Shown here piece after piece: positions 5,717-47,678 of a stretch of 64,000 nt of DNA. The position numbers and the translations under genes are program-made. The DNA lies in NCBI GenBank assembly GCA_030141605.1, contig JAQGDQ010000386.1, positions 1 to 64,000 of the forward strand, in the 5' to 3' direction. Numbering within the stretch: the stretch's first letter is position 1; each line of letters starts with the position of its first letter. The notes beneath the pieces were generated by a model, which had not been told where the DNA came from, made no database searches, and saw only the letters and a program-made list of their open reading frames with translations. This stretch comes from Tubiluchus corallicola (taxonomy: Eukaryota; Animalia; Priapulida).

Positions 5717-6073
5717 TTATTTTCCATGTTTTACTTTTGAGTGTCTTTTTACACCGGGTAAGGTATTAAATAGTCTCCCACGGTGTTCGCACAGAAATAG
5801 TTTTATATTCTCAATTTGAATAATATGCTGATTCTGCTTCTCTTTGTGGACTCTTAATCCGCTAATCGTCGTTAACGTATGCCCACATATCTCACACAGG
5901 TACTGTTTTTTGTCTTGGAAATGCGAAATGGTAATGTGCCGCCTGAGTGCACTAAAACTTTTAAACAGGCGACAGTATTTATCGCACCTAACGACCTCCA
6001 GTTTTCGCAAAACCACTCTACTGTTAAAAATACAGCAATCTGTAAAGTGACCAACTGTGCAGTATATTCGCAT
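5717..6073 (-). pseudogene. Intronless triple C2H2 zinc-finger ORF, partly degenerate
   Basis: CDKYC..F..FSALRRHITISH; CEICGHTLTTISGLRVHKEKQ; CEHRGRLFNTLPGVKRHSKVKH (some ligands lost). Confidence 0.6.
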
Positions 6074-21500: not shown

Positions 21501-24500
21501 TAGTTATATTTAGAAACAAATTTTCACAGCAGTTATAATATTAATCCACATTATGCGATCTTTTTATATAAAATGCAGAACAAGCTACTAAACATACGTT
21601 TCACCAACCATTAACAAATGATTTTGTGTGAGAATGTACCACATTATACAGTATTGTGGAATGCACCTGGCTTCAGAAGCTGATTGGCTGGTGTACGTTA
21701 CTTGTTGCAAAGCCATTGGAATCTCAAGGCTGTTAAACATTTCTACATGTTTTTGCATGGCTGTAGCAGCGAAATGAACAGACCTGAGTGACTGCGCTTA
21801 GAGATGAGCTGAGCTTTGGCAGCAGTCTATTACTTCCGTCCCTTATATGAAAAATATAGGCGGCAGTGTACCACCTTCTGTAGTGAAAGGGTTAACGAAG
21901 TACCTTTAAATGTGAAATGAATACCCACTAAAAGGTATCTTATTAATTTGTAAAAATAAATAAATAAATATTTAAAGTAATTTTTAAATTGCAGACTTGC
22001 TAGGTCGCATTTGCAAATAGCGTACTGCACATGTTGCTTGTTTTCAAAAAGCTGGAAATGCTAGCTTCCCTCATGCGCTCAAGCGAGACAGGGTTGTCAA
22101 ACGCCGCAGATATGCAGCATTGCAAACATTTCCGATCTGTCGTGATTAACCCTATAAAGGGTTGAACAGCCTGCCTAGCCATTCACCTGGTGCATGATTG
22201 CAAAGCACCTTGTGATTGGCTGAAATGGATGCTTCCGTGGAGTTAGTCAGTGCCCGATTTACAGGGGACATAGAGGGCAATTACCCCGGTGGTAACATGC
22301 GAAAACTTGTATGTGGTGTGGTATGTTAAATTGCATTTGCTCTTGCTTTTATTGAGGTGCGATATATAAACGTATCTGCTAGGTTGCTAGTTAGGTACTT
22401 ACTACGTTGGCATCTCAGGTCAGACGGCTAGTTTTGATAATGAACTAAATTCCAGATCTAGTGCAAGTGCAAAACTGTAAAAAAATCTTAATTAACCATT
22501 TTCGTTGATTTTTAATCATACGCAAAAGGTCATCGCAAGTTTACCTGCGTCACATACGTCAGTCCAAACATTTCTTCTAGGAACGCCTCTTCTTTCTGTT
22601 TAAATATGCGCCTATACGTTCTAACGATTCTCCCTATAATATCACTAAATGTAAAAAAAATCAAACATCAATGTTCCTCGCAATTGAATTCAGACTACAA
22701 AATTTGCCTGACAATTTTAATTTATAGCAGTGGTGACAAAATATGTTTTAAGTGAAGCAGGATGGTTTTGACACACATGAAAAAGGCCACTGAACTAATT
22801 AGAATCCCCAAATCCAAATATGAAATTTCTTTGTACTTCTTAAAATAGACTTGAAATATTAACGACACAGGCAATTATTGTCAAAAGTCTACTACTTCTA
22901 AAATGATTATTTATCCTACAGTCAAATTCCTGTAACACAATTTGGCTTATGACGAAACTCTCAGCAGTATGATAATTTTATTATGTCCTGCCAAGGTTAT
23001 AATAAAACCTATGTAATCACTTATGCTTAATACGAAACTCGTTACTCTGCAACCCCATTTTATACGATGATTTCTCAAAGCTTGGCAATATGAGTTCAAT
23101 ATAAAAACGGTTGTAATAAGATTTCTGCTGCAAGTTAAACAAGCGTAAGTTATGTTCATCGATCAGAAGATAAACATTATAGAGACTATCAGCATCATAA
23201 TATAAGCCATTTCACATTAGAAATGACATTAGGAGTTAAGTGTACAATGGATAGTAGAAAACACGCTTAATATGAAAAATCCTGGATCTGATGAAAAAAC
23301 GCATTCGAATGTATATTTAAAAATACTTAAGCAGCTAATTATCTAGTTAATTACACGATTCTTTCCAGTTATAAGTTTTATAACATTGTTGCTACATTAA
23401 ATGCCATGATTTACATTGCTCTGATTACAAAAGAAAATCCTGTCTCTAGCTACATCATTATTCCATAGCAATGCACACTTCTTCTTCTGTTGGTCTAAAC
23501 AGCTTGGACATTGAGCCTCTATCCTTTATTAGAGCACCCCACTATTTCCTGTCTGCAGCTACAATTTTCAACTCCTGTGATGCTATTGTCACGTTTGTTC
23601 TCAGAGGCTGTAAATCTTTAGTAATTCTTGATATCCAAGTTGTTCTTGGTTTCGCCTGGATGTCGTTTAGCAGGTTTCAGTGCCTCGTTTAATGCTAATC
23701 TTACTTGTATTATGCTATTGTCACGTTTGTTCTCAGAGGCTGTAAATCTTTAGTAATTCTTGATATCCAAGTTGTTCTTGGTTTCGCCTGGATGTCGTTT
23801 AGCAGGTTTCAGTGCCTCGTTTGATGCTAATCTTACTTGTATTATGCTATTGTCACGTTTGTTCTCAGAGGCTGTAAATCTTTAGTAATTCTTGATATCC
23901 AAGTTGTTCTTGGTTTCGCCTGGATGTCGTTTAGCAGGTTTCAGTGCCTCGTTTGATGCTAATCTTGTATTACACTGTATGCAGCACTTTTAAACATGAA
24001 ATAGGCAGCAAACTTAAAAACAACATCTCTGGCTTAATTACAAAAACATGAATACCACTGTGTAACAGTTTCGTAAGTAAATAGATACAGTTATATCAAG
24101 AAAACTTCACCAAACAGCGATCACATAACTAACTCAAGCATATCTAATATAAACATAACTCCGCTCAATGATACTGAGGATACATTAGCAATTTAAAATA
24201 GTAAAGATTAACTGTTACATATCATTAAGAACTAATAATCAAAACACCTCCTTATTTCTTCTATACAAGGTTATAAGAAATAATTATTAACAATTACCTC
24301 CACAGTGTACTCTCATCTGAAGCTTTGCCAACCAAATTATATCCCCCGTAATCTAGCTGCCTTCGTCTTCTGCTGAGCCGAAATATATAAACGATAATGA
24401 GGTTAATGGGAAGTACCACCAAGCTACTGGTTATACCTACAAAAAATCAATAAAAACATTCATGGAAACCATAACCGAACAGCCCATTAGATGTAGTACA

Positions 24501-27500
24501 ACATGAATCACGGAGCATGTAAAAACATTTACAAATTAATGTTCATATTATTTAATAATAACACCTGAGCAAAAGAAATAATAATGGAAGTAATTTTTAC
24601 ATAAAAACAAAGTATTTAATTACAATCAAACCTTGCTGCAATGCCAACCTCACTTTATGTCCAAATTTTTAGCAAGACAAGATATCTATATTCGCATAGA
24701 CATGTATGTATTAATGCATCTCATTTCATGCAAGTACACTTTTTGGTGAACCAAATGGTGCACACTGGGATGGTGGTGCTCTGCTGTTTTATCATGTGGT
24801 ACAAATATTTCAAATTATGAAGAATTTCTCTAGTTATGCAAGTCTTTCTAACAAGTACATAAGCATAATGCCAAGTAAAATAACTTTCTATGGGTAGTTT
24901 TTTTGAGACATCCTTTAAAATTTCGTTTTTTTTTCTCCCTTAAAGTTCATTACGTTTACAATACAGCAGTTGTATGGCAGTAACAGTCCACTTTAGGTAG
25001 CGACTAAGTTATATAACATGTTTATTATAGATACAAAAATTGCATTGGCAGATGGTGGTATTTTCTGTGGTACATGATACATTACGAATACTAGGCATAA
25101 CCACCAAAAATGCATTATGGTGCAACTGGTATTACAATGATGTACAGTAAGGTTTGATTGTAAAACTATTCGTAACTAATAACAATTAAAGGTTACTGAC
25201 TAAGCAGGATAACTACCTATAGACAGCTGTACCCAGGAAAACCTGAATACTTTTCCAACTACTAGTTGATCTTCAGGATTATCTGTAGGAATCCCATAAA
25301 ACATGATATTTGCCAACATTGTAGTTAAAAGCAACGTCAAGACGCAAGCTAGTCTCTGAAATATAAAAACAAATGTAAAAATTCTACGTCCAAGTCTTAA
25401 AAAATGACTTATCAACGAGAAAAAGCAGTATTATGGTAAAGCTGGCATTATAACCAAGAAGCCTCTCATTATATTAAACAGCCATGTTGTACAACTTGAC
25501 CACTGTACGTGGTCGTCCAATGTTGCATGATGCTCGGAAATGTTTAATGTTCGAAAATATTAAAGCAATATGTTTGAGACTTTTTGGAAAAAGCACATTT
25601 TGAGCAAAAGTTTGTATGTTCTATTGTTTCAACACACTTTTTTGCTGTCAAAATTTGAAACAGCTTCACAGAAAAATATTTATTAGCATGAGGCATAAGG
25701 TCTATCCAGTAACCTGTACAGTGCACAATTGTTTGTAATGATCCACTAATGTTACCTGAAGTGTGTTGGAGCTCACACAGTAAAAACACGGGCCTTCGAG
25801 CACTCTTTTTTATAAAAAACGTAAAGAATAGATAGATGACAATTCGAAAGTTACTGTGATAGTTTACATTATACTTGGAGTACCAAAGTTCATCAGTGTA
25901 GTTTGCATTTTACTGAAAATGATAAAAGTTATCAATACAGTTTCCATTATGTTGAAAGTTATGGCTGAAATTTACAATTTCCCACACACAAGAAATTAGT
26001 TTGTGAAGCAGAAGAGTTAGAATTAGGGTTAGGGTTAGGGTTGGAATTAGGGTTAGGGCTAGGGTTGGAATTAGGGTTAGGGTTGGGGTTGGAATTAGGG
26101 TTAGGGTTAGGGTATTTATATTGTGCAGGGAGGTGAAAACTCCTTCAAAAGTTACCAATATCTTAAGTATCAAAAACTTCAACAAAAAGTACCTGCACTC
26201 TAGTAAAATTGCTGTTTGCAGGCCTCAAGAATATGCTGGCCCAAAGATGGTTATCCTTCATGTCACGACGTGTATTGTTCTTGAACAAGTTAGAAAACAT
26301 CTGTAAATAATCAACATTTTAGATAAAGTTAGACAGAAATGTATCAATATATAGTTTTAGGGTAAATGTAGACCATGAAACTAGACTTATTAATCTTATA
26401 AATAATCAATAATCAACAATAAACATTTTAAAGTCAGAACAAGTAGTTTTCTAGGAAAAGTGTCATTCACTTACAACATTAAGAATAAGTAAATATATAA
26501 GTAGATGTGCTGAATTAATCCATGCTTAGATTTAACTCACATTTGAAACACATTTTTAAGTCTCTAAATAACAACAGCTGCCATTTTTTCTTCTGCACTC
26601 TCCCAGAGAAGCTAAAGAAGAGTTTGGTTATTTCTTTAATACGAAAAATCTCTCTCAAATGTGACAATCATTTATCAGCAAATCGTTTAAAATTGGTAAA
26701 AAGTAGCATTAAATACAATAGGGGCTGCGCAGACTCACAGTTAATAGAATTAGTCACCTAATTGACTTAAAATGCGAATGACTTGATCTGGTGTGGCAAA
26801 TGTGCTTTAAAACTGTAGGCAACCGACTCAAATAAATCTACATAATTGACTCAACGGTTTTGCTACAGGTACAAGAATAACTGGAAGCTAAACATTTAAT
26901 CACTTGTCTAGTGGTTTCCTCTGAAAGCTCTCACTGCTTTTCATTGAATGCATAATCAGTTAACTGTTGCTATTATACCACCAATACAGCACCAGTAATT
27001 TGGCAGTATTCCTTGTGACTTTACAAGTGTAAACATCACAGAACAACTAAGGACATAAGAGTTAATTTTGAAGAAAAAAGAGCATACATATAAAGACTTA
27101 ACATTTAACGCTCTCGTAGCACTTGCAGTGCATAATATACCGAAGAGTAATGACTTATACTTCTGTTCTAGTAATACTTACACCAATCGCCTAATACAGG
27201 GGTGTGCAAACTGCGGGCCGCGAAGAGGTTTGTCAACGTAATGAAAGTGCGGGTAGTTTTTTTCTCTAGATCGGATGGCATTAACCCTTACAAGACCGTT
27301 GTCACTTAATGTCACTGTCGGACATGACGAAATTCAACGTTGCTCACTTGGAACACAAAAAAGCGATGTAATCACAGAACACAGCAAACTATCATGGAAG
27401 CCGCCATTCAAGCGCTCAAATGTGCAAGAAATGCGAGAAGCAATCTGATTGGCTGGTAGGAAGACCAATTAGCCAATCTCTAGGCTTCTATTGTCGGGCC

Positions 27501-30500
27501 TGTTGATCTGTCCAGTCATCTTCTTGGTCATAGCAGGTAGAACATTTTGACTTGGGTATTTTACAAAATAAATTATAAATAAAATTATAAAATAACCAAG
27601 TCAAAATGATCTACCTACTATGACCAAGAAGACGACTGGGCAGACCAATTTGTAAGTAGCCAGCAAACTGAAAAAGTGTGGTCACCCTGATATAGGGGGA
27701 TGCCCAGATTTTAGTTTCAGCTTAGGCTCAGTAGTACACACCTCAATCAGTGGCTATTTCATCGTTTCATCAGATGTGATGTTCTTATAGATCAGAATCA
27801 TGGATAAGAAAAAGAGGAAGATTGAAGAAGAACAGCAAGTCAAAACAGATTAATATGCGCTGTACTACACAGACTGTGTGATAGACATTACTAATATGCA
27901 TTGTAATGAAATTACCACTATCTGTCGTGAAAGTAGAAATATATGGTTTTAATATAAATTTTAATAACTTCTAAAATAGTTTCTTGAGTGTAGTAGTGCA
28001 GTAGTAATGATGTGCGCAAATCGGATGCAAAAAAATCGTTATTGGGATTACTGTACTTGGCTCCTCGACCAAACTGCATGTGGCCCACAGGAATTACGGG
28101 AATGTTTAATGTGACCCGCCTAGTCAGATAATTTGCACACCCCTGGCCTAATAGATTCAGTTCGTTAATGGGATCAAAACACTTGCATTCCAAAGTGAAT
28201 CTATTAAACTGTGCCTACTGTATTCAAAATCCCAACAGAATTCTAACACACAGAAAATGTAACAACTGCCATGAATGAAACTGGTTAGTTATGAAACAAG
28301 TAGGGATAGTAATTGAAACAGTGTTAATTTAATGAAGAAACAGCACACACAATAACCACAATGTCTGCAAACTTCAAGAAATATATATAATTAGATTTAA
28401 ATTTAATTAAATGACACTAAATGTGTGGTAAACATTTATCTTGAGTTATAAAAAATTCTTGAAATGTCACCTTGAGTTGGCTACTAGTGGCTGCAGGAAT
28501 AGAACAATAGACAGTTTTGTGGCCTCGGTCAAGAGCTAACCAATTTTGGTAATTAAAAAACCAGGTCTGATTCGTCTGACCGTCTCGAATCACAACTTGA
28601 TTAAGAAACCTGTAAAATTAACCAACTGATGAATCACACAGTCAATCAGACAATCATTAAAGAAATTAATTAAAGGAAAACAGGGTGACTTTCCTGTCAC
28701 ATCCCATTTTAAAGTATGGTAAAAAGTGTTCATTTTAACATTGTATAATAATGACAAAACATTTCCGATAGTTAATTAATAGATTAGTAATTTAATTAAT
28801 CGTGTGCGAGCCTAAACTCAACAAATTTTAAATTTAAAATTAAAATTTTAACATTACAGCTGTTACACGTGAGCTGTTACTTCAACACTGGACACTTCTG
28901 AACTGAGAGATACAACACCTTTCCGAGATGCAGGCACTGGTGGACATCTAACTATAGTGAATGGCAAAATGCATGTAACAGGGTTGAAGTAACTAGACGT
29001 GCGAATGCGAAGTTACGTTTCTGTGGTGATAATTCTTACACGTAAGCCATTCTTGAAAACGTAGTATGTTCCCTTTCAATATTTCATAGAGTAGATTGTT
29101 TTGAACTATAGTTCAAGAATGTTCCCGGTTTTCCTTCAAGCAAATATCATTCAATCAACTAGCCAACTCATAAGAAACAAATCTTTGATAATCTAATTAC
29201 AATGGATTTACAAAGTATGAAGCAAACGAAACAATTTTGTTTAAATTTATTACATTCAACTTATCAACCTATTGTATTTCGTACATCAACATATCAGAAG
29301 ACTGCATAGCAGTATAACGAAAACATGAATACTTTGACTTTGATTAGCAGAGTTCGATTAACTTGCCATTCAGGGTGGCTTCCAGCATTATCATGCCATA
29401 GCTCAATAGCTGTCAAATCACCAAGACATTTCTTTGTGGTCAGCATGAACCAGTCTTCTGCACCTCTGTGCATGATTGTTCTTGTCTTGTCCTCCAAAAT
29501 GACCGGGTTGCTGGACATGTTCTTACCTAATACATTTAAATAGTGTAAATTAATCAAGCTGCGTTCTTAAAGCAAGTATCTATACAAAAGTCGATCAAAA
29601 GGTTTAGTAAATTAGTCTTTCTTACAATATTCTAATCCTCGGCTGCTTATGACTCAGCAAATCACCAAATGGGTAAAAAGAGCATAAAAACTAAAGTGCA
29701 AATGCAACACAAAACAACCCTAACCAAAGCATAGTGAACTCCTACTTTAATACCATAGAAAGTCCTTTAGTTACAAACAACTTTCAGTACTACTTTGCTA
29801 AAAGAACAATTTATTTTATAAAAACTTTTTAATGGTAGTACCTATAAGAACAATGGCAACGTGAGCTGAGGTGCCGGCGCCATTCGTTATCCCAGTGTAT
29901 GTCGTAATCAAGTAAACATAAGTATCATTTGGACTATTGTCTTCTAATAAAGTCACACCCAACTAAGAACAAATTACTGTTAAGTTAATAGTAACCACTA
30001 AACAGTTAGACTTTTCTTATCCCATAAAAACAAAATCTATAGTAGACCAAATGCAAATTTAGAAGTAATGGCGGAACAGAGAAGCTTTCTTTGACGTAAA
30101 AGTCTTTCATCGTACTACAGCAGCAACAATGTCAACAAAACAAAACGAAACTGCAAGCACACAATTCGCCAACATTTGAAAAAGCTCACTATACATTTAC
30201 AGTGCATTGCTTCTTAAACTTAAACTTTAAAATTTGTTTTAATAAGATTTCATTGTTATATTTCCGATAAAATAACTTGCAGCTTGTTCTAAGAAGTCTT
30301 TCATAAACTATTGGCATATTTACATTGTAACACTGACAGTCCGTGAGCACTGTTCATTTTGAGCCAGACGTCAATCAAAAAAGTAGAAATATCCATATTT
30401 GTCAAATAAATGTAACTACATCAAAATGGAATTTATTGCCGACCAATTTCAAACAAAACAGAATTATCAAATTCTGTTCTGTTGCTACTAACATAATGGC

Positions 30501-33500
30501 TTGTTGGTTTGTGGAGTGTTAAACAGTTTCTTACTAATCAATATATGTAGAATGTAAGATAAATTGCTAAATTATCTATATAATATTATATCATATATCT
30601 TTTGGCTATTAACTACTGAACTGTATTTTGACGTTGCTTCTAAATTCTGGTAAATTTCTTTATTTTAGATGTCCTAATATTGAACAGTTTTGTTCGAAAC
30701 TGGTTGGCAACAAATTCCATTTCAATCTAAAAGTGCTGTAAAATGCATTGTGTTATTAAATATAAAATTTATTTACACCTATAGTTATGCACTGACATAG
30801 AACATCTTTAATAAACTGTGCACAAATGTCTCAGAGTAAACTGTTTAACAAATTTGTTGTGCAATCATTTTATTTTACTAACCCGAAGCTCGTCCACTTT
30901 ATCTTCTCTCCTAGCATATAAGAAAAACACGAAGCAAATTATCCAAACCAGCACAACAAAAACCACCACAACCGGATTATCAAAAAACGTAAGAAACAAA
31001 GCAGCATCTTTGAACGGGTGAATCTCATTCGGTGTTGCGAGAAGACTTCCACCAAAAATTGACATGTGTGAACACTGGCAGTGTATCTGCTGCGGAGAGG
31101 TGAAAGGGCCAACCTGAAATTAAAACTCCAACTTGCATTCAGTAATGTAATAAAAATTTTAAAGCCAACTGGATGATTTCTAGACCATGCTTGTTGTCTA
31201 AAATCTCCATTTATGAACTATAATAATAACTAAACATATCTTTACTCTTAACCAATGGGTTACAGCAGGGGTTAGCAAATTGCGGCCCGCCGAGAGATTT
31301 GTCAACCTAATGAAAGTGCGGCCTGGGCGATTAATGGAGTGTATCCAGCTGAAGTCCGTGCCAACGATCCCAAAGTGCGGGTAGTTTTTTCTACTAAATC
31401 GGATGCCACTAACCCTTACAAGACGGTTGTAGCTTAAAGTCACTGTACTACACAGACTGTGTGCGACACATTACTAATATGCATTGTAATGAAATTACCA
31501 CTATGTGTCCTGAAAGTAGAAATATATGGTTTGTAATATAAATTTTAATAACTTTTAAAATAGTTTCTTGAGTGCAGTAGTAATGATGTACGCAGGTCGG
31601 ATGCAAAAAAATCGTTATTAGACCTTTCTGTACTTGGCTCCTTGATCAAACTGCCTGTGGCCCGCAGGAATTGCGGGAAAGTTAAATGTGGCCCGGCTAG
31701 TCAGATAATTTGCACACCACCTGGGTTACAGGCTAGAAAGTAATAGGTAGCACAGCTAGTTATCATTGATATGCGTCTTGAACATATTTGCAAAAATAAA
31801 GGCGCATTACCTCAATTTCAAATTCTATGCTGGCCTAACGCATTAGTTCAGAAAATCAGTTGTGACCAGATACTATAGATCATAACCACAGATTATATAT
31901 TTATAAGAAAGAATTGGCTAAATTTGTATGTAAAGACTAGAGACTATAGATCATAACTAGGGGTTATTCACAAAACAGAACTAGCTAAATTTGAAAAAAA
32001 TTACAAGCTTAATGTCAGACTTTATTCTTGGAAGGACCAGGTTTTTACCCTGTCATAATCACTTGTTACCCTCTCATTATGCAGGTCCTGCCATTGAAGA
32101 CGTATTTTTGTGCCGGTTACAGCTTGCAAAAAATGCATCACCTCTTAATTAAAAAAACTACCTGACACCCGTCATCAGACCATTCATCCAGTGTTTCATT
32201 CCAATAAAGACATCGTACTGATTGAAATGACAAGTTGAAGTTGATGTAGAACAGCTCAACGGGTGCTGAAATAAACAGTTACATTTATACAAGGCAAGTA
32301 AGCTGTAAAAATCTTTACATTGGTTTACTGAGATTACAATTAGTTTCTCTCTTTTTATTTGGTGCAGTAAAAATGTTTAATCACTTCTTCGTATTATTAA
32401 CGGACATGGGACACCTACACATTAAACTAATGACCCATGGCTAACAAGCACTCTTTAGCATTAAAATTACCTAGCAATACGATGTGCTACAAAATGCAAA
32501 TGACCAAGTACGCATCTAAATATATGCAAGTAAAACATGTTATAAGAAATCATTTAACAATCATTTAACAACTGCCCCCACCATCCCAGCCCCCTTTGAC
32601 CATGTACACACAATGCTTTGTCCAGTTCACAAGAAAAGAGTCAGCCATTGGAATTGGAGGATTAACTAACCTTGCAGTGAAGATATGATAAAACATCATT
32701 ATTTGGAAAGCGCCATTTTGAGAATCCAAGATGGCCACCAAGTTGATTATTGTAAAAAATGGAAAGATAATTTTTAGGTTAAAGCAGATCCTAAGCTCTC
32801 CAAAACCCTATAGGATATCTAATCTCCAAAAACTTTTAAGGAACATTATGTATGAGGCTAAATGCTTGATTTGGACTCAAAATATCATTTAAGTAAAAAC
32901 ATTTTTACCTGGTGTGTCATTTGCAGATAAGTAACAAGGAAACTTTACTCTTTCATCCGAAATCGTAAACCACTTCATGCAAGGACAAGTAAACGTGAGA
33001 TAGCTTGTTGTTACTACTACCTAAGTAAACGTCAAAACAACTTGATAGAACATAGGTAAAGATTGTAACTATTAGCAAGAGTAATATACATACAGGAAAA
33101 TGAAATATTTCTGTAAGTAAAAATTACACAAGATAACTAGCCATTAAGTACAACAAGTGGTTATTTAAGATTTTAATAGAAGTTTCTACACAGGAGGGTA
33201 GGTCCAGCTGTTGAAAACTTAGTCCTCGCTTAACGACACCTTGGATTTTAGCCTTCAACCGGGCTGCTTGCAAGATTTTTTTTCTGGCAAGATATTACTG
33301 ACACGCTGAAGTACCCAACAACATTTTCACCGTTTAACTAATGTTACTGTAAATATTATAATTTATCGTCAGCAATCAGTATGGTGGTTCTGACAGCGTA
33401 GCCAAATAAATCGTATAAATCATCTTACTTATACCAGACTTTCGTTGTTATCTGCTCGACTCATTTTGCCTGGAATGTATTACAAATACTAAAGCCACGA

Positions 33501-36500
33501 CTTGCTGTAAATAGATGGTTACGTATGCTAAGAATGATCTAGTCTTAAATCTTTAATGTGCTTTTGAGTATGAGTTAAATGGGAGTATAAACAAATGCTG
33601 TAACCAGGGACTACTAAATACAGTAAAAAAACACTCTACATATATTTAGTTAGCTCCACCCGCAACTATGAATTTTAAATATGTTTCAAGCAATGATTTG
33701 ATAACAACCTGTTTACTTAGCTATACCAGCTACTCTAACCATCACCTATAAGCTGCTGCAGTTGCTCAGCTTATCCAGTTATTTCAGCTAATTCTGGTCT
33801 TAGTGTACTCATCAGTATTTATTTTACAACCTTTGGACATTCTGTAAAACTGATACAAAAGTCCACTGGATTACAGAGATAATACAAAAACATGAAAGAT
33901 AAAGTGCATAATTAGTATCTACATAACAATTAAACAAGCGTATTAATTAATGAAAAAGCCAGTGGCAATCTAGCAAGTATTAAACAAACGAATGTAAAAC
34001 ATGTAATGTTATCAACGGAAAGTATTGAATTTAGCTTAAGTTTAGGTTCTTTAATATAATTATACACAACAGTCAATATCCTACAATTTACTGAGATACT
34101 AGTGATCTGGAGTAAATTACATAAAATGTATGCTTTAACATTATTAATCAAGTTTTCGTAATTTCCAAGATCTTCATTGACAAATAGATTTGACATTGAT
34201 AACATCATACATTGTGTAGTAGCAATAGACAGCTGTGTATTCATTGCTGTGCCATGCTTAGTGACACAAGAGTTATGTTGTAAAAGCAAAAATAACTTCC
34301 CATGTGTACATGTATTTTTTATTTTTTTATTGCAGGAAAACATTAAAGGATCTTGAATTATCAGCAACTTGCACTATTTTCTGCAGCAATCACTAAGGTA
34401 CCATTACTTGAAATTTCAGCTAATATCAGATCTAGTAGTTGTAATCATCAAATCACTGGTCGCAAGGTATTTACTGCAGTAAAAATAGTTAAATTATTTT
34501 GCAATTTACTTGTAAATGTCATACCTTTTCTAGCAGCCAACCCGTCTGGAAAAATGATTTTTGAATCCACATTGTAACACTTTGCAAAAGTTTTACAGTT
34601 CTTGTGGAATACATGAACCTATCAATCCTATAAAAATACATAGAAATAACAGTAAGGTACAGACTAACCTATAACTAAGCCTGCTTTACATCTGTAATGC
34701 TGTGTGCTTTATACAAAAGATTTTTTAAAAGCCTTTAAATAATTTCCGTCATGTAATTGTACCCTGTTGTTCAGTTACAGTCAATGATAAAAGCCTCATA
34801 GTAGGTTTGTGTTGTCTGTTGAAGTTATAGTCAACTTTAAATAATTAGAGGTTATTGAAATACAAGAGAGCTCTCTTGAGACTTGTCATCATTAATACAG
34901 AAAGATATTATGCTCTTTATAGTCTCAAAAATTATTTATTCAGTAACTTTCGGCCTAGTCAGCTTCATCACCTGCCTAGAAAGTGCTAGTAACTTGAGAG
35001 TGATAAGACACCAAACTGATAAGACAGACAATGTTGCCCAATTTTAGAAAAAAATGCCCCCAGAACTTTATAGAAGCACATTTTCATAATTTTCTTTTAG
35101 CCAATGATGAGCGTGCATATTTCTTAATAAAATTTCAACCAACAGACAATAGCGCCATCTTCATTTTAGAACATAACGGTATAAAACATTAATGAACATA
35201 CAAACATATGAAAAACAGCTGCTAAGCACAATTGATGATTCTTTTATGTAATTGTCGCCCGCAGATTCTTGCAAAATAATATGTCTATAGCAACCGTTAA
35301 CCCTTTCACTACGCAATTGCATCTTAACTGGTCTGCATTGACTTTTGCACGTTTGACAATAGCTTCTTGTAGTGCGTTACTAAAATAGAATCTGGTAAAT
35401 AAACAAATGAGTTTGTTATTAAACACTAATATTGAATATTAGTTCTATTTGTATATATGTACACAAAAACGTGCACACAAGTATGCACTTAATTACTCAT
35501 GCACGCATTTGCCCACCCACACAAATAAACATGTTAAAAGAAGACTTAAAAACGAGTGTTCACAAAAATCACACGACTAATCTAAAGCATACAATCATTT
35601 TATAAAAAATGCAGAAACAGTGACTAAACATAAGTTTCATTAAACATCAACAAGTGATTTTGGGTGAGTTCTCATCTTGCAGTAGAGTATCGTAAAATGC
35701 ACGTGGCTTCAGATGGTGAAAGGCTGGTTAGTGTTATTCCTAATCCCAAGGTTGTTAAACTGTTTTACAATGTTCTTGCATGGATGTACCAGCAACATAA
35801 ACAGGTCCGAGCAACTGGGCTTAGTGCTGAGTTCAGGCGACAGTCTGATGCCGTCCGTCCCAAACACAAAAAACGTAGGCAGTACGGTGCCGCCTTCTCT
35901 AGTGTAAGGGTTGAGCGACCACACAAATTTTGTTCTTTGTAGAAATAGATGTCAAATGGAATATGCATGCAATCCTGCTCGTTGTATTAGAATCAAATCA
36001 CATAATAAATAAAAAATAAATAAAATACTGTGTAGTAGGCCTACAATATAAAATGTTCAAAGCTCAACGTAAACTTTTACCAAACGGCAATGAAGGTAGC
36101 ACCAACTTACTGTGCACGTCCAAAGTTATTGTTCCCACCAGCTAGCTCAAAAATGGGTGATATACCACCAGTTCCATGGAGTTCAATAAACACCCTAGCG
36201 CCAGTGCCACTATAATCTGTATCAGCCGTGTATGTTTTTATGTAGTAAGTTGAATCATCTGACAAAAACAAAAAAGACAAACTTACTATCTTTAGTTTTG
36301 CTGACAGAAACTACTATATTGTCTTGTACTTGTTACAAGCCTGGGAACCTACCAGGACTTTCCAAATAACTATCATTCTGAAAAATGGAAATGAAAAACT
36401 AAAAAGTATACAATGTGTTTACTTCATCACAGTACCACAATATGAAAAAGACTTGACAGGGTTTACTGATTCTATAATATATGCTCTATATACTGTATAA

Positions 36501-39500
36501 CCAGTGAGATGCTTGAGTGACTCACCGTGTGGGGAAGGTACTTTTCTGTATCACTGCCTGACACCCTAGACACCCACTGCCTGAAGCGTCTAGACACCCG
36601 AGGGAATAGAGGGATGCAGTCCTTGCTTTGTCCAAGTAGATTAGTGAATAGGTTATAAGATTAGGGTTGTAAGTGAACAAATACGAAAAGATGGATATAG
36701 AAGATAAACATTAGAAAAAAATTCTTATGCAATATCCCACCAAATTTCTTTTTCACTTCAAGCTACAAAGTTGAAATATAAGAAAAAGCTAAGCAACTCA
36801 CCTGTATAAAATTTCTCGGCGATATCAGTATCATACACAATGGGAGGATCCTTTGTCCACCAATTTTTCGCACAAAACGTTTTCTTCTTTTTGGTAAAAT
36901 TTGTGCAATTGACTGAAGCATTGAAATTGCATATATTCAAATTTAATGAACATTCATCAAGGCAGTCCTGACGCAGTGCAGAATCGCAAGGAGGTTCACA
37001 CAAATGACACTGCTTGACACACTCAGTAACACTGACATTGCAATGTTCTGTGACATATGCACTGCACTCACCATAAATATTCCTACAATGTTGCCTGTCC
37101 ACATCTAGCTGTGTTGTTTGAACACAAGCAGAGTCGTACTGAAAGACGCATTCAGTGGTGCCTTCACAGTATCTGCTTTTTTGATCTAAACAAGTTGATC
37201 TCAGATTTACACATGTAAGATGACACTCTTCAAATTCATACTTACAATAATCAATGCAAGACAAAACTTTCCCATCACAATTTGCATTGCACTGGCTAAG
37301 TTCATTTGTGCACCTATGAATACAAGCGGTATCAGTTGCTGTACAGTTGCTTACACATGCACCTTGGTTAATACTACATTTCTCAGAACAAGTATCTTTC
37401 TCCACTTGACAGTCACCTCTACGTTTGTTCAAAAACTCTTTGCAGTTGAAGTCACAATTCATGTAAATGCCATGACAAGTCTCATTCACAACTTCAAGAC
37501 AGTCCTTCAAAGTGTTCTCACATTTTTGAGAAACATTTTTACAATAATCAATCCACTCATTGTAGCAGCGATATTTCTGCAAACAAGCATCAACACTGCA
37601 GCTTTTAGATTTTTTATTGTTTTTACACTCAGAAGAAACTCTCTTGCATTCTTGTGATGGACCAAAACAAGGAGGAGTAAAATATTCATTGAACATTATG
37701 CCAATGTAGTAGTGAATTGAACTGCTGCGATTGTTGTATAATACTACACTGTTATCTGGTTGGTCACTTGTAAAAAATGACTTAGCATTAGGAACGGGAA
37801 TTTCATAGACGGATGAAAAATTTGAAAAATCTTCAAGAACTGGCCTTACATCCTCTTTAAAAATGACCTGAAAATTAGAACAGTATTACAACAAACTCAT
37901 CAAAAAGCATACCAAGTCAAATATCACATGCATTCGCTTAAGTATCAAGTGACATCAACGGGACGTCAGTGTTTTTTCTGTTGATACTTTAGCCGACACT
38001 AACATTAATTCTGTACTGCAGTGGCTCTATAAGCAATCTAACTAAGAAAAGTTTAAACTAACAACTCATTTTGACACATGACCAAAATCTACTTTAGCAA
38101 GCTGCCCTCTGATTTTTTTGTCAAATGATTTCAGCTACACTGCATTTAAGCTTAATTTCCGTCCGTGTTACTGATAATTGTTCAGGTTTTTCCATGACAA
38201 AAGTGCAATAGTTCTGACTGTTGCACAGAATGAACGTTTTTTTGCAGCTTAAATGTCCAAGCTTTCACCAACAGTAGACTACAAACAGAACAACATTGTT
38301 ATAGTAAACATACCAGGGACCCAGGAAAAAGTACTCCATAACCGTGATACTCTATAAGCATATGCTGATAATAATATGCATATGACTAGTTAATAGATAG
38401 ACATGCATGTATTAATAATAAAAGTGTACAAATAATTTACAATATGTGGCATCATAGAGAACGTAAAAATACTTTTCAAAGATGTTGACAAGTATCAACT
38501 ACTTTACAGTATATTCAGATTCTAAGAAATACACTTCATGTGATTTCAATAAACAAAAATAGATGAATGTTTCATATCAAATTTTGTGTACCCATTCTGC
38601 TGTAAATTTACTTGACAGGTTCAATAAAGTCAAGCGGGAATCAAAACAGCTGGTCAATTTCGTTTATGCAAAATTTTCGTTTGTCACTTGAGTTTTTGTC
38701 ACATAAAAAGTTTTTGCAGCAAAGTAACTGCAGTAGGATTCATCACTTGGAAATGTTAGCTCATTAGCATGCTGTCAGTGTAGGTACATAGATAAAACAG
38801 CTGGTGCTACACTAGTATGAGACTCATTGTTTCTCTACACTAGTAGACAAAAAGATCTTTGGACACGACATGTTAACAGCTTCGCATACTCCATAGCCAA
38901 TAACTTTTTGCAGCTCCAGGTGGGGCGCGTTAAATTTAACCGTAAATTAATTTGCAAACCGCTGACAAAGTTAAAGTACGAAATAAAAACCAATAAATAT
39001 ATAGTTATACAGGCAATTTGGCCCCATAAAAAGTCCACAATATGCAATAACAAAGTGTGCAATAATGCAGTAATAATAACGATGGCAGTTTGTTATTTTT
39101 TGTGAGTTTGCATTACTGATGTGCAAGCAATAAACCATGTGTGCTATAATAGTGTTATACTGCATCTATTATACAATCAACTATAAGCTGTCCAAGTTTT
39201 ACCACAGGACTGACCATATGTCTAATTGTAAGTTTTATCACTGACAATTATAAGGAAGCCTGGTACAATGTCTGGTACATAATCTTGTAATGTAGTCAGT
39301 AACAAACATAATACTTGCTAACTCGATAAATATAATATTTTAGAAAATAAAATAATCACACATTCAACTTAACTAAGTAGCTAAACTTAATTAAACAAGA
39401 GACGTCATCCTTATTTTTTCAAAAAAATAATTTACAAAAACGGCAACCAAAGTTTTTTTTACAAAAACAAATAATATTTTACGTACTTTTAAAGTTGCGT

Positions 39501-42500
39501 TCTTTTGCAAGCCCTCAAAACCCAATATGAAGAAACTGTAAGAACTGACAGTGAAATTGTAAACAGTGATATCTTTGTCAGTATAATTTCCATAATGCTG
39601 GACCACAAAAGATGCAACCAATGAATCACTTGTTGCTGTAAATATTCAAAAAAATTAAAAAAATCATTACTGCTTCATTACTTAGTCTTTCTTAGTTTAC
39701 TCTTCATAAATTAAAATTGACGATGATAGCTTGTTAACACTGCCTTTTAAATTAGTTTGGTTTAAATATAGTTAATTTATTGTAATATGACAGGGATTAC
39801 AATATGGTTTGAACAAAACAGTTTTACAACTGGTAGACATTCTTACCAATGGAACATAACACTTAGAAAAGTGCAGACAATAAATGAACAGTAGAAGCAT
39901 TATATTCAAATTCAGTTTTTTTATTTCACCAGCAAATCTGAAACCAGCCGATTTGAGTGTCGGCAAATCGTGCCTACACCTCCCTGCGGTCCCAACCAGG
40001 CAACTTCACTCGGTAGGCTAAAGTAGGACGTCACCAACGACCGGGGGTGAATCTGAAACTTAAGGAATTGGCGGGAGGGCGCCACCAGTAGTAAAATGTT
40101 GCAGTCGGGCTTCGATTTCGTCCCAAGCGGAGGTTGAGAGGGCAACCTCACAGACTGTCGAGCAAGACGTACTCCTAATCCTTACGAGGGTGCCAACCGG
40201 CCACATTTTACAACTAAGCGGCTTACGAGACGCATGGGAAACATCCAAGTATCGAGAACAAAAGTGGAAGTGCACCACAGGTAGTGCCATTAATGGCTTA
40301 AGCTTGCTGGGTAACAAGCTTACATAGGTTGCAGTCTGGCCGTGACTTTCATACTGGCAGAGGCTGACCTCGCAGAGGTGGTTTTATTTCACCAGCAAAG
40401 AAGCAAACTACAATAATACATACTATACATGTACAACTTTTTTGTATAATTCAAAAAACAACAACAACAAAAATAATTTCTGATTCCATCAACATAGCAA
40501 TTATAGTGTTGAAGCTTGTCGCATGGGAGCTATAAAGATGACCTTATTAAGCCAAAATGAAATGTGAAACGAAGAATGGAGATGATGAGGAAAATAAAGA
40601 AGAGCTACGTTGCAGTTAGTAGAAAGAAAAATGAAGAAAAGAAGTCAAAAGAAAACATAAAATAAGAAAACATGTTCAGAATAGCTGCAACTGATTTTTG
40701 ACAAGAAATCATTGCTAGATGCCGTAAGACCGATAGGAAACACCACCCAAGTGAATTATTCACTATTAGACATAAGACAGAAATATACGCCATTTCAAAC
40801 ACTTTTTAAAAGTATTTATAGATTTGCTGCTTTTAATGTTTGGACGAATATAAAGAGGCTGTGAATTTAAGAAAATGTCTATCAATATTCATTCTACAGT
40901 ACAATAAGGCATAAAATACTGATTAAGACAGGTATTATTGTGTTTAATCACACAATATTGGATAAAAAAAGTTGTTGGAAATAAACTGAAATGTGTTTTG
41001 TACATATATGTGGAGAGGTTAAATGAAATTAAATCTTCTAAAATTAAAATACTACAGTTTCGAAGTAAGTAGAGATTTAGTTAGTTGTCTATTTTCTTTG
41101 ATATCTATTTGAGATAACCAAGTCTGTAGGATAAGTTCTGCCCCATAACACAAAACAATGTTAAGCAATGCAAAATTAATGTATTATATAAAGATGATAA
41201 ATGAAATTTACATGGTTTATATTTGATAAAGGAAATTATTCAAGGTTTTTGCAATTTTTTGACTTATCGTGTTTACATGAGGCTGCTTCCAATCTAAGTT
41301 TTCATGAATTACAATTCCCAAAAATTTGAAAGTACTCACACGCTCGATCAAACAGCCATTGGCATACATATTTATATCCTTTCGAAGTGTTTTTTTTTAA
41401 TGAAAATCATGCTTTTTGTTTTGTTGGGATTAAGAGATAATGTTAGATCAGAACAATCTGTAATTACAGGTAGTGTCTCATTTATCTGTTTTATGGAGTA
41501 AGAAGAGAGACTGAGAAATAAGGTTGTGTCATTAGCAAATTGAAATAGGTTCAAGTTGTGTAATAAGTTACTTAAATCATTTATGTAAAGCAAGAACAAC
41601 ATGGGTCCCAATATGGAACCCTGAGGAACGCCACATTTCATACCCGACAACAATTCTAACTTCTTACTTGTTGAGTATGACTGGCTAAGTAACTGACAAA
41701 CAAGGTATTGGTTGTGCCTCGAATTCTATAATGAGTCAGTTTTTGAAGAAGAATTGAGTGGTCTATAGTGTCGAATGCTTTTCATAGGACACAGAAAATG
41801 TCTGCTGCTAGAGAATTGTTTTCAATAGTGGTTACAGTGCATCACTATTTTTGAAAAGGGGTATCATTACAGCTTGTTTTAATTTATTAGGAACATGTCC
41901 ACTGCTAAGTGATGCATTTATTATATGACTAATAGGTGTAGCAATGGATGGCATTGTATCATTAATTACCTTGGGAGAAAAATTGTCTATTCCTGGACTT
42001 TTACTTGAGTTTAACGTTTTACAGATGCTTATTATCTCGGCAGGACTAATTGGTTTAAAAAAAGATCTTAAAACAATTTCCCATTAAATGATCCGCTTAA
42101 TGCTTGTTTGAATTTCAAATTTTATTTGCAAGAGATGGTGCCATACTTGCGAAATATTCATTGAATTTATTTGGGGTTCAGTAAATTAACATTCTGTCTT
42201 TGCAAATATATTGTTCGAGATTCTCAGTTTCTGCAGCTTGGCTGGCTACTTTAGATGCAATAGTTTTCACTAAGGCTGTAAGATCATTGTTCTCTTGTTC
42301 AGTATTTTCTAACCTTGTCACACATCACACAAAGATTATCATATTTAGTTTCCAAAGATGTTTGTCCTGCCTCAAGTTTTTTCAAACCAATTTGGATTTT
42401 GCCCATTTCAGACATCATTTCTGCTCTAAATTTTTACAGTTCAGATGAAAGGTTTTCGTCAGTATTAGATTTCATATTACCTTCAATATAATGTCACATT

Positions 42501-45500
42501 ACAGTATGATTGCGAGCAGTGTAGATCCTGCTACAACAATACCTAGCGTAATGTTGAGAATGACATGCGTAAACAATGTAAACAAGTACAATGGTTAGAA
42601 GTGCTTAATTAAAAATAAAAATTTCCGTACAAACTTAATACTTGAGTATTAACAGTTATAAGTAGATATTGATGGCCAAGAAGAAGTAGATAAATGACTT
42701 CATTTGTCGACAGATTAATATCCTAATATTATACGTAATTAACAGAATACAGTTCTTGTTTAGCAAGATATCACGAGTCTGGCGATATAAGGGGCAGCTA
42801 CTTAGAAAATGACCAGTGGTTTCAAAAGAGGCACCGCATCTATAAGTAGGTAACATGGGGTTCCCTGACTTTCTTTTTGGTTACAAGGATAATAGAAACG
42901 AGAATTCTACTAATACGTTCACATTCAGTAAAAAAACTTGATTCAAACGTCTACCATACATTTCTAAAAAGCTTAAACATGCTCAGCAGCAAACCAAAAT
43001 CAATTAACAGTACCTTGTGTATCAATAAAGAAATCCAAAGGTCGTGAAATTGGTTCCTCTTCACGTTTCGACGGGTCAGTCATACTAAAACTCAATACTG
43101 GGGTATTCACAAGCAAGGCAGATTCATCCCAGACAAATGGGTTTTCAGGAACAACATACATCTAGCAAGCACAACATAATGATAAACACTATCTGTTAAT
43201 TGACCAAAAATACGAACCTACATAATAAGAATTTGTTGAGCTATTCTATAAAATGGCAAACTATATGAATTTGTTAAACTATTTGACAAAATGGAAAACT
43301 AAGTGCTTCAAAGCCTCACTCCGAAACACTTCAAACATTAAATAGTGCGTAAATAAATTAATAAACTTACCACTGCATCCACGGTTTTGTCAGCCACAGC
43401 ATCTGTGATTTTATCGTCCAGTGAGGGTTCTAATGGAGGGAGAACTACACGTCCAGAAGCTTCTAGATCAAATTGAAAACCTAGAAATAGGTGAACATAT
43501 ATGACAGGAAAATTAAAAATGATATTATCAATAAACACCATTTATTAGACTCACTGTTAATAGAATCAGTCACCTAATTGACTCACAAATGCCTGGGTAC
43601 CCACTCCATAACCCTGTTAGTAATGGAAAAATGGCTAAGTAAACTTACTACTGCAGTTAGATTTAGTTTGTACAGAGACAACATACAGATACTATATTAA
43701 CCACAAACAAAAAAATTTACTTGTAGTAACCATTTGAAGGCTAATATATTAGTCATAAAAATTTACATATGGGTACGGGTGGCGCTGTTGTAATGTGAGC
43801 TACATGGAAGAAATCTCAGCCCTTCTCTGTCATGCTGGGCTAATAGCCTGCGAGTACTAATACTATCAGCTTCAGGTTCAAGTCCCAACTGGTCAACAAT
43901 TTTTCAGTGTCTCCTTTGTCTAACTCATTATAATTAATTAATGAAACTTGTTTTACCTTCAGAGCTTTTGGTGTGTTTTCTGTCCACTTTAAGTTTAAGC
44001 GAATCGGTACTGATCGTACTAGGTTCTTCACCAAGAATTTTATAATCAAGAACAACTTTTGCAACAGTGTCGACGATCTTCAACGTTTTCAAGGATGTGT
44101 CTTTTGCCTGTTTAAAAATACATGGTTACTGTAAGTATAGAAAATGTCAGGAAATGTATCGTTTCAGGAAAAGTATCCAATAAAAAAATTAAGTACTTCA
44201 CAATGAAATTGGAATATAGAAAGGGCAACCTACAAAAAATAGTCAGATTAGTGTGGACATAAATAAACTAACTCAACTTACTTTGTTTAAATGGAAATGA
44301 TACTGAAAATTTCTACCAGGAAGAGGTTTAATTGTGTCCAAAAACATTAAAGGATAACTAGCCATAACATAGAAATCACAAATGCCATTAGGCATACACA
44401 GGCATTTTTGAAAATTATCCATTTGTATAATCCACTTATAGCGAGTTTCAAGGGACCATGAAAATTTCCTCCCCACAACCGACTCTCATTTATGATGAGG
44501 TGAACTGTTTGAGTAAACAAGATAGAAATTAAGATTATACAAAGTGGATGAAACAAGGATGAAAAGAGCACTTTCTTCTGGGACTGGCTCAAGTTTCTTA
44601 ATGAGTGCCATTCTTAAGCAAGTAATTAATCACAAGAGTAAAGCTTTAGTGTTTAAATTTTCTTTTTTATATAGGATTAAGGCAGTATTTTACGCAATAA
44701 ATAAAACTGTCATGCAAGTTTCTTTTCTCTAAGTTAAAACTGCTGTGATTCATTGTGAATTCTGTTGATAGTTCAGTGTGTTTGCCTGTTTGTGCACGGC
44801 TACTCACGATCATATAAATGCTTTGGATGTATTTTGCACTGAACGCGGTTAGCTCTGTGTGGGCGGAAACCAAAGCTGATTTTTATTTAAATCTGCACAG
44901 GACAATTTATTTTATAATTATAAAGCATTTTCAACATGGACCAATGTCAGCTAATATCTAATTACCCATGTGTAACTTAACGTAAAATCACTGTATTTAT
45001 TCAAAACAACATCTTTATTAGAAATTCAACTTTGAAAAGTCATAGAATTACTTATTATGCAACAAAGAACAGTTTATTTTTTTAAAAAATTCTGTTGTTT
45101 TGCCTACTTTACATAAAATTGCTTCACAGGAGGAGCTGTCAAGTTTTGATAAGAATGAGAACAGATTCAGTTGCTGGTGATGACGTAAAAACTGCTTAAG
45201 TTTATCAATGGCTTCAATGGTGTCATTCAATGTAACGCATTCACAAACTGGTTCTTTTTCTGCATCTGTATCATGTCATTGATTCGTTCCGACTGTAAGT
45301 TACAATTACAGCAGGGCCAGTAGCTGCAAACCTATTTGAACATCTGCATCTTCTGTACTTGATCTACCTTGTTTTATGCACCAGTAGTAAACTAATCCTC
45401 ATGGTGATCTCTTTGCTCTTGTTGAATGGTGCCAATTTGCCCTTTGTTTTATTACTTGCACTCATTATATGCACACGAAATACAATCACAGGGCCATAAA

Positions 45501-47581
45501 ATTCACACGTAGGAAGCAAAATATCGGATCTCTGTAAGCAAGGTTCAAAGATATTATTTAAGCCTAATAATTGACATGTCTTTGAAATTTACTCGCAATA
45601 ACCAGAAACTCTTTATAACAGAACTTGCTATAAGTGGATTATACTGTATAATAAAAGAAAACAAGCGAAAGTTACGTCTTCTATTATTTTGTCTTTGCTT
45701 CGATTTTCCTCTAGTGACACTTTATCTTCCACGATTTCATATCCCTCATCTTCATCAAGCAAAATTTGTTTTCTAGCAGATTTAACAGCGCCACCAAATA
45801 TGCTTGACATGCCAATCATCACGAATCTGCAACAAGATAAACAATAAACAAAAATAAAATAAACAGTGTGCAAATATACAGCGTGCTGCCAGATTGATTG
45901 ATAACATGCAGAGTATGCAAAATACTAAATAAGTAAGACAAACAATTTTCCCAAGTGGAATTTAATTTTAATGAAAAGATTGTCACAATTTCTGGTAGAG
46001 CTATAAGAACTGTAAACGTTCATACTTTGCAGCATTTACCAGTTCAGCATCGATAGTTTTTTCCAAAACATGCTCTTCCATTTCGCTTCCTATTTCAGTG
46101 AACTTTGTCATGGCATTTTGCTGAAAATTATGACACATGAATAAACCCAATACATAAATGAATACAAACACAACAAACGAATAACAGCAAAGTTCACACA
46201 TTTATTCACCGCAAAAGGTATAGAGATTCTTTATGATAAATAAATGCCAATAATAACCAAAAAAGTAGATAAATTAATACCATTGCTTGTGGTGATAGTT
46301 CCTCAACAACCACGGAGGTTTGGCTAAGAAGTACTGCAACTTGTTCTACAGATTCGCAGTTGTAAAGTGGAGTCTTAGCCAAAACATCCATAATAGAGGA
46401 CCGAACCTACCAAATCAAGTTATCAGTAAAGTTAGCATACAGATATTATTCCTGAAAAGCGGGTTTCTTTAATCATTTCATGTAAATACTAAACTATTAT
46501 GATTACAGATATGCATACTATTGACACTGCAGCCATTTTGTAAATATAGTGTGAAACAATGCATAAGATTTTGCACAAAAAATAAACACCCATAATAAAA
46601 TACCGTATATTATCTAAAATGCTAAAAGTTTTGCAAAATAAACACTATTATCTAATATGCGATTTTTATAAAGGATGAACAGCATTTCAAAATTGTAAGT
46701 GTAATCAATACACTTCAAAACATCGAGCTTGATTTTGCCTAAACAACATTAATAACATCAAAAAAATGGAATCTATAAACAATAGAAGAGCATACTAGCC
46801 CTTTGTATCATTTGATGTCACGTCACACCATTGTACATGCGCAGTATCGATTTCAGATGGGAATAAGATACACAATAAGAGAGACATCGGCCTGGTTTTA
46901 AATTTATTGTTGATTAGAATTCATACAAATGGGTGGAAATATATATATATATATATATATAGTCTGATTTGTTGTTTTTATAGAAAGAAATGCATAACGC
47001 TTACGTCTACGAGTTGTTGCTTCAGATGTTTTGCTGTTATTGAAATATGTAGTTTAAATTAATTCATGACTTTGTAAGAAAAACCGCACAACTATATAAT
47101 TAAAAGAGTGGTCACCCAAAATATAATTAATTGTAACTTACAAGATTTGGAGCATATACATTATTAATTTTTATCACAACTCTAACATTAAATAAAACAC
47201 AGGAAGGATAACCAATCATATATAATTAATCACTGATTATTACATAATTACTATGCAATAAGCACAATGCACTAATCTTAGATATAGGACGAGCAGATTA
47301 GCATATGACTATTGAAAAAAATGTTAAAAAGGAAAAAAATAAACTAATGAGTTAGGCGGATCATTTAACGTCTGCTTATAGGAATAGCAAGCATCAAATG
47401 GTCACCTGTACAGAGGTGACAATGAATATTATAACTTAAAATGAAGCCGGTATAACTGATTCAAGGTTAACGTAATCTAAAAGCACAGCCTGACCGACTC
47501 TAGGTAGATTTGCAAAAGTCTTGCAGCAGAGTTGAACTCAATCACGGGAATATGTGACTTAATAATTATAATGATAATGAA

Positions 47582-47613
<32 letters not shown>

Positions 47614-47645
47614 CAATAATAACAACAACAACAACAACAACAACA

Positions 47646-47678
<33 letters not shown>

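Follow-up and report, generated by a model that had tools for sequence, protein, structure and literature searches.

The GAIN domain is regarded as self-contained, additional domains being joined in front of it, and a locus of the priapulid Tubiluchus corallicola raises the question of whether, in a polycystin-1-like receptor, a second PLAT domain can be built into it, next to the strand that holds the cleavage site. The window analysed here is a stretch of 64,000 nucleotides (contig JAQGDQ010000386.1 of assembly GCA_030141605.1, positions 1 to 64,000), AT-rich (~34% GC) and rich in introns, most of which belongs to a single gene on the minus strand, running in from the right edge as far as ~14213. 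A first interpretation made from the letters (the sequence-only reading) had proposed that this gene encodes a polycystin-1-like receptor with a Cys-rich module and an extracellular PLAT grafted into GAIN. On the evidence below, it is very probable that the gene specifies such a receptor, with an insert of ~420 residues comprising the Cys module and the extracellular PLAT; what the insert might do is weighed separately, with less confidence.

The gene model and its insert exons

By domain content, the predicted product is a member of the PKD1/REJ family, of the 11-transmembrane (11-TM) polycystin-1-like kind. Pfam matches on open stretches follow the order EGF, REJ, GPS, PLAT, polycystin and cation-channel; the REJ domain of the ectodomain is above the cut-off on three open stretches, the polycystin domain has an E value of 1e-23 and the cation-channel domain one of 6e-37, and the transmembrane region has collinear tblastn matches with three PKD1-like proteins as queries. 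Before the first transmembrane segment (TM1) lies a GPS motif, C-Q-C-S-H-M-S (31080-31060), in which H-M|S fits the CxCxHL|T pattern (PMC13197933) as well as H-X-S/T (PMC13062082); the Pfam GPS score of 22.2 bits, just below the cut-off of 22.5, was obtained on exon E, which holds half the motif. The usual cytoplasmic PLAT follows TM1 directly, as had been stated, is matched by Pfam and scores 87.1 bits with the profile described below, and it clusters with polycystin PLATs (support 99/91). Its second exon has an apparent GC donor (29366-29367, minus strand), assigned because the frame requires it.

An 18-exon model from 48838 to 28471 (minus strand) has phases that match throughout and encodes 1,130 residues with 0 stops, the other two frames having 59 and 121. 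All 18 acceptors are AG, and 17 of the donors are GT and one is GC. The phase check covers this span, and exons beyond it were placed by Pfam and tblastn (Table 1). The insert is carried by four exons, A to D: exon A runs from 37867 to 36802 (1066 nt), B, C and D hold the extra PLAT, and all four have AG/GT ends and phases that chain 0>1>2>0>1 into exon E. Scored with a splice-site matrix trained on the other 14 exons of the model, their acceptors lie at the 96-99.5th percentile among 1,094 AG sites in the gene span and their donors at the 90-99.6th percentile among 1,328 GT sites. One continuous open frame in exon A holds both presumed GAIN strands and the entire Cys block, and the frame is lost in 8 of 10 exon-skip patterns tested, including the joint skip of A-D. 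The proposal that the Cys-rich block and the PLAT lie in the spliced frame between HYYIGIM and the GPS is borne out at the DNA level, as the modelled phases chain with 0 stops.

A contig from sequencing run X1 covers 35412-36286, including exon B, and in the rows listed for it there are three exon differences (two silent, one Ile to Thr) and no frameshift; it supports exon B in a second DNA source, not linkage of B to the other insert exons. Another X1 contig, of 151 nt and lying within exon A, shows 13 differences. Over 32.1-38.0 kb, X1 covers 22 of 30 bins, a patchy record in which none of the contigs listed bridges the insert exons. Among the joints listed for runs X1 and X2, none matches a modelled intron, which is no evidence either way (X1 contigs cover introns).

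The extra PLAT domain

Joined together, exons B, C and D match positions 3-105 of a 116-position PLAT profile with 59.5 bits (E 4e-16, Z=25,000), which confirms as near-complete the three-exon PLAT that had been placed at 32909-36258. The profile was built from 245 repeats in 15 of 119 multi-PLAT, LOXHD1-type proteins (a protein search found 422, of which 120 were listed, namely the query and these 119), and it gives 101.8 and 59.0 bits to the cytoplasmic PLATs of the comparator protein P0002 and the Hyalella PKD1-like protein P0004, respectively. In isolation, the extra PLAT scores 66.4 bits, and the highest of 1,000 shuffles reached 4.7. When 2,060 open stretches in six frames were scanned, exons B and C took two of the top five places and the exons of the cytoplasmic PLAT the other three, followed by a match of 8.1 bits, with exon D alone not listed; B and C match the profile separately and in profile order. 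The core Y, T-G, G, F and W positions of the profile are kept. With Pfam, nothing was detected on exons A-D taken singly, the PLAT in B, C and D being missed because single exons are too short, and a PDB sequence search with exon B alone gave only a chance nanobody match. Of the two PLATs that a domain scan had been expected to return, Pfam returned the cytoplasmic one but not the extra one, which was recognized by the LOXHD1-built profile.

Upstream of TM1, the model contains no hydrophobic segment (the maximum Kyte-Doolittle value is 1.38, versus 3.25 for TM1). The extra PLAT therefore lies N-terminal of TM1 and is predicted to be extracellular, in support of the earlier assignment. A hidden transmembrane helix that would make it cytoplasmic was considered and rejected, no such segment being found upstream of TM1.

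Position within the GAIN domain

The NPF motif and the Cys of strand 10, two conserved anchors of GAIN, are separated by 587 residues here versus 160, 169 and 193 in the three comparators that have an ordinary GAIN domain (P0002 and the metagenome loci L002 and L011). The excess is ~400 residues, for a predicted insert of ~420, and supports a position within GAIN. The comparators are the one of four relatives with GAIN and the two of 11 loci with a GAIN exon, the other nine loci, from which none was recovered, having been left out. In free-excision scans, the surplus extends from residues 445-481 to residues 863-891 for all three comparators, the left boundary being the range of the top six placements per comparator. 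Upstream of the insert, the exon Y region matches L002 (z 8.4, 0 of 2,000 shuffles) and exons U2-Y match P0002 (z 5.8, 0 of 1,000 shuffles); downstream, exons E-F match P0002 with z 26. It had been suggested that the insert splits a CFG..C..KDPP loop of other invertebrate PKD1L proteins, but this loop is absent from all three comparators; cnidarian PKD1L proteins may have a short Cys-closed loop like CFG..KDPP. From the NPF region to the GPS, L002 (5030-5680) and L011 (4057-4659) have a single exon, and the same span is crossed by six introns here. The Y-Z intron within GAIN holds a broken non-LTR (long terminal repeat) reverse-transcriptase frame (41375-42083, minus strand; Pfam RVT_1 E 7e-10).

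Polycystins have been described as having a specific nine-strand subdomain C between strands S9 and S10 (PMC11697300), and both sandwiches are said to be traversed by S10 (PMC11697300, Supplementary Fig. 3 legend). Given this topology and the NPF-to-strand-10 excess, the insert likely sits in this accessory subdomain just before strand 10 and not in the catalytic core. The extra PLAT ends ~16 residues upstream of strand 10. A graft beside the cleavage site, as first proposed, is thus upheld as regards its place inside GAIN, but it would belong to the accessory part of the domain.

The Cys-rich module

The Cys block (residues 469-740, at the end of exon A) has 272 residues and 41 Cys, in agreement with the ~270 residues first estimated. 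Cys pairs at lags 7, 11 and 22 number 17, 19 and 19, versus ~6 expected (0 of 5,000 shuffles each), and lags 4 and 18 have no enrichment. The spacing is 11-periodic and also mirror-symmetric, its axis falling between Cys577 and Cys584 and pairing 13 couples of Cys as far out as 469-692 (matched by 14 of 20,000 spacing shuffles), and the turn of a hairpin is predicted near 37345-37322. In a single-sequence AlphaFold model there are two ~50-residue helices, which align with generic antiparallel hairpins (best Z 10.5, root-mean-square deviation 4.2, 113 aligned). The periodic, mirror-symmetric Cys and the AlphaFold helices are read together as a disulfide-stapled antiparallel helical hairpin, the likely form of the module, with its ends back at GAIN. 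The rod-like character that had been suggested is supported by the periodicity and the mirror symmetry; since the hairpin returns to its base, the PLAT would lie beside GAIN and not at the rod tip.

Relatives of exon A were found neither among 294 candidates of 623-2,000 residues, nor at E <= 0.001 among 1.84 billion representatives, nor in ESM Atlas or PDB sequences, and 17 pattern matches in JGI metagenomes yielded 0 confirmed; the length limits of the three word searches exclude full-length orthologues >2,800 residues. Foldseek gave no match to the module at E <= 0.001, and no known Cys-rich domain family was matched by profile, sequence or fold beyond generic helical hairpins. The module may represent a new disulfide-laddered hairpin fold.

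Origin and chemistry of the extra PLAT

In a blastp comparison with 1,767 PLAT domains, a set dominated by LOXHD1 repeats, the top eight matches of the extra PLAT were all LOXHD1-type repeats (27-34% identity); the gene's own cytoplasmic PLAT ranked 1,412 of 1,638 matches, and the PLATs of P0002 and P0004 were not matched. One loop has six residues, the length also found in 897 of the 1,014 LOXHD1 repeats that could be scored (another 750 of the 1,764 could not), versus seven in all six scorable polycystin PLATs. In a tree of 71 rows, from which two half-domains were left out, the clade of the five polycystin PLATs (99/91) does not include the extra PLAT, which sits on a long branch. Intron positions differ between the extra and the cytoplasmic PLAT, and recent duplication of the gene's own PLAT was rejected on these different introns and on 29% identity over 85 residues. 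The extra PLAT looks LOXHD1-like, and an origin outside the gene is likely. Flanked at either end by an intron of phase 1, the cassette is of class 1-1, to which shuffled extracellular modules have been assigned (PMC8001218), and it would likely have arrived from outside the gene by exon shuffling.

Of 42 consensus columns, 19 are retained in the extra PLAT and 24 in the cytoplasmic PLAT. The extra PLAT differs from LOXHD1 repeats in having half the acidic residues (9, versus 18.3 +/- 3.2 in 1,764 repeats, the 1st percentile being 10), more aromatics (19 versus 12.4 +/- 1.9) and no HDN motif, the HDN loop being replaced by a Phe-Phe loop. Acidic consensus positions act as Ca ligands in Ca-dependent PLATs; D19, E45, E55 and D70 of the consensus are replaced here, and D12 and D50 are kept. 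Calcium binding, which the sequence-only reading had ascribed to this domain, is doubtful on these counts. The cytoplasmic PLAT of the same gene is also acid-poor (10 acidic residues), so the acid count argues against assuming Ca binding without proving its loss. PLAT domains have been reported to bind lipids and proteins (PMC8051682), and Alox5a-PLAT to insert hydrophobic residues and bind stretched membranes more tightly, which Alox12-PLAT does not (PMC8740744).

A proposed mechanism and its alternatives

By analogy, this receptor likely works like other 11-TM polycystin-1-like subunits, by GPS self-cleavage, retention of the ectodomain and activation through stalk exposure. For polycystin-1, it has been proposed that the stalk is exposed after removal of the N-terminal fragment or by a conformational change of GAIN (PMC9672506). 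In the mechanism considered here, the insert exons would be included in the mRNA; the protein would cleave itself at H-M|S, the halves remaining together as in polycystin-1; the insert would emerge from the subdomain C loop before strand 10, its hairpin projecting ~7-16 nm (50-108 residues per arm at 1.5 A) with the PLAT at the base; and an aromatic-rich face of the PLAT might engage a partner protein or a lipid surface, probably independently of Ca. Because the PLAT ends so close to strand 10, the sandwich with the cleavage site could be affected by binding or pull, and binding or tension might then shift strand 10, expose the stalk and gate a channel formed with a PKD2-type partner. If the architecture is granted, coupling of this kind stands a slightly better than even chance, and the complete proposal, in which a spliced-in binding arm relays what it touches, or the force on it, to the strand next to the site of self-cleavage, falls a little short of even. 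A narrower version, in which the outer PLAT and a disulfide-stapled lever on the cleavage-site strand form a sensor of membrane contact or tension that gates a polycystin channel and can be switched by the three-exon cassette, is rather unlikely.

Several results weigh against the complete proposal. The exon joins, including those of the insert exons, are modelled from sequence; the donor of exon B (90th percentile) is the weakest among the 18 donors, and two of the skips tested, B-C-D and A-B-C, stay in frame. The pre-insert region matches L011 poorly (z 0.9), and the exact loop is inferred because similarity in subdomain C is not significant with any of the three comparators (z 1.45, -0.29 and -0.62). 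For the Cys module, the mirror test is weaker when the regular core is held fixed (449 of 20,000), a second register shifted by one repeat fits nearly as well (12 pairs), the AlphaFold model has low confidence (mean predicted local distance difference test score 47.5), and the hairpin alignments of that model mean only a common helical arrangement. For the extra PLAT, an outside origin stays only likely because a tree in which it is forced inside the polycystin clade is not rejected (p-AU 0.31), and the 19 of 42 columns and the long branch would also fit relaxed selection. Ligand, force response and channel gating are hypothetical.

The main rival holds that the insert is expressed and folded but is a passive decoration of a tolerant loop, serving adhesion, spacing or ligand binding without coupling to cleavage or gating, much like the variable N-terminal domains of REJ proteins. 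It would fit the GAIN loops of >50 residues described as common (PMC11697300), the ~30 residues by which the subdomain C region already differs among the three comparators, the 428 foreign residues that split the REJ domain of SpREJ7 (PMC1934368) and the fast evolution of the extra PLAT. The distance of ~16 residues between the PLAT and a strand that continues into the catalytic sandwich speaks against it, as do four intact exons and a highly ordered Cys pattern, and it is judged unlikely, if deserving of serious attention. It is quite improbable that the Cys module is constitutive and B-D an optional cassette that many or most transcripts omit, so that the receptor would exist both with the outer PLAT and in a form lacking it: B-D amounts to 363 nt between phase 1 introns and its skipping leaves 0 stops, with the comparatively low rank of the B donor on the same side, but the acceptors of B-D are as strong as those of the flanking exons, B, C and D each break the frame when skipped singly and therefore must all be handled together, and in the second DNA source two of three changes in exon B are silent with no frameshift (a very small sample).

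Two further explanations would remove the PLAT from the receptor. The likeness of the PLAT to LOXHD1 repeats rather than polycystin PLATs, and a likely assembly oddity elsewhere in the window (a 1,447-nt perfect inverted repeat at 149-3396), might suggest that its exons are remnants of another gene or of mis-assembly which can be joined to the polycystin frame by chance; this is very improbable given that the phases agree at five junctions in a row, from Z-A to D-E, that B-D follow profile order, that exon A joins both presumed GAIN strands and the Cys block in one frame, and that Met is absent from the open frame upstream of B. Finally, the PLAT exons might mainly serve to end a secreted short form, an ectodomain closing in PLAT with no membrane part: reading through exon D meets a stop after six codons, at 32891, and AATAAA/ATTAAA signals lie at 32359 and 32381 in the D-E intron. 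This is hardly credible, since exon D has a strong donor (98th percentile), such signals often occur in DNA of 34% GC, and a product without strand 10 would have an incomplete GAIN.

Relation to known systems

Human PKD1L1-3 and PKDREJ and sea-urchin SpREJ3-6, of the 11-TM PKD1/REJ family, are described with the same order of REJ, GAIN/GPS, TM1, cytoplasmic PLAT, polycystin and channel domains (PMC1934368, PMC5318412), to which this gene adds ~400 residues in GAIN, with the Cys module and a second, extracellular PLAT. The PLAT of these proteins is stated to be always intracellular (PMC1934368), and members in zebrafish (PMC5318412) and planarians (PMC11448475) are presented with one PLAT, after GPS or TM1. 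The SpREJ7 insertion likewise splits a conserved ectodomain fold of a PKD1-family protein with ~430 residues, but there it is REJ that is split and no domain is named for the insert in the account of it (PMC1934368), whereas here GAIN is split and a PLAT lies inside. Polycystin subdomain C, where the insert would lie, is itself an additional beta-sandwich placed between S9 and S10; no domain inserted within it is described in those passages of PMC11697300, a study with 2,738 polycystin GAIN models, that were covered here. LOXHD1 repeats and lipoxygenase PLATs share the fold family, LOXHD1 providing the best sequence matches, and LOXHD1 is reported to be needed for hair-cell mechanotransduction (PMC8051682); those PLATs are domains of repeat proteins or enzymes, whereas the extra PLAT is a single copy in a receptor ectodomain. 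In the literature covered, which did not take in subscription journals or database architecture tables, no report was found of an extracellular or second PLAT or of a GAIN insertion in polycystins. The predicted architecture appears to be new within the known PKD1/REJ family, its rarity being judged from three comparator GAIN domains and the literature, and its occurrence from one species.

A natural graft of ~420 residues in the polycystin-specific subdomain C would mark a permissive site by the cleavage strand of GAIN, for which no experimental polycystin structure existed according to PMC11697300. The insert site would offer a handle on how ligand or force reaches the GPS: the matching loop of PKD1-like proteins could receive tags or force probes, with in-frame deletion of the insert as a control.

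Other features of the window

Table 1. Predicted features of the polycystin-1-like gene in the window, in the order of transcription
Feature	Position	Strand	Evidence and remarks
EGF-like ectodomain exons	60571..62921	-	Pfam EGF/hEGF, three exons scanned; gene runs off window end
Fourth EGF-like exon	near 59100	-	Seen in sequence
PKD-like repeat and REJ exons	54240..58033	-	Pfam REJ on three open stretches, weak PKD matches
Eight exons U7-Y	43014..48838	-	Phase-matched; helical region and GAIN subdomain A/B strands, NPF motif near 43143
Exon Z	39487..39635	-	Phase-matched; likely first subdomain C strands (inferred; pairwise similarity not significant)
Exon A, 5' part	37693..37867	-	Likely last subdomain C strands, ends HYYIGIMF; free-excision scans
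Cys-rich module and KDPP linker (exon A)	36802..37669	-	Cys periodicity, mirror symmetry, low-confidence AlphaFold helices
Extra PLAT, exon B	36111..36258	-	Phase 1 start; profile match
Extra PLAT, exon C	34525..34627	-	Profile match
Extra PLAT, exon D	32909..33020	-	Phase 1 end; profile match within B+C+D
Exon E	32162..32265	-	Extended GAIN strand 10 and first half of GPS; Pfam GPS E 2e-4, 22.2 bits
Exon F	30883..31113	-	Predicted cleavage site C-Q-C-S-H-M|S (31068-31060), stalk, TM1
Canonical cytoplasmic PLAT, three exons	28471..29962	-	Pfam PLAT, 87.1 bits, splice ends
Remaining TM2-TM11 exons, polycystin and cation-channel domains, terminal stop	14213..26306	-	tblastn, Pfam PKD_channel E 6e-37

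Within the gene, a REJ exon (56642-56965, minus strand) has an acidic, His- and Tyr-rich stretch of ~70 residues beyond its Pfam match (residues 4-44), possibly another loop insertion, and the predicted cytoplasmic tail (14213-14460, minus strand) holds three copies of a basic 11-letter unit, likely a recent internal duplication. Beyond the end of the gene, the arms of the inverted repeat (149-1595 and 1950-3396) are 100% complementary, lie 354 nt apart and cover low-complexity Asn/Gln-type repeats; they represent either an assembly artefact or a very recent palindrome. A GC-richer island (4400-8300, up to 46%) contains short, interrupted frames on either strand, one of them a C2H2 zinc-finger frame (5720-6073), and is probably a decayed mobile element.

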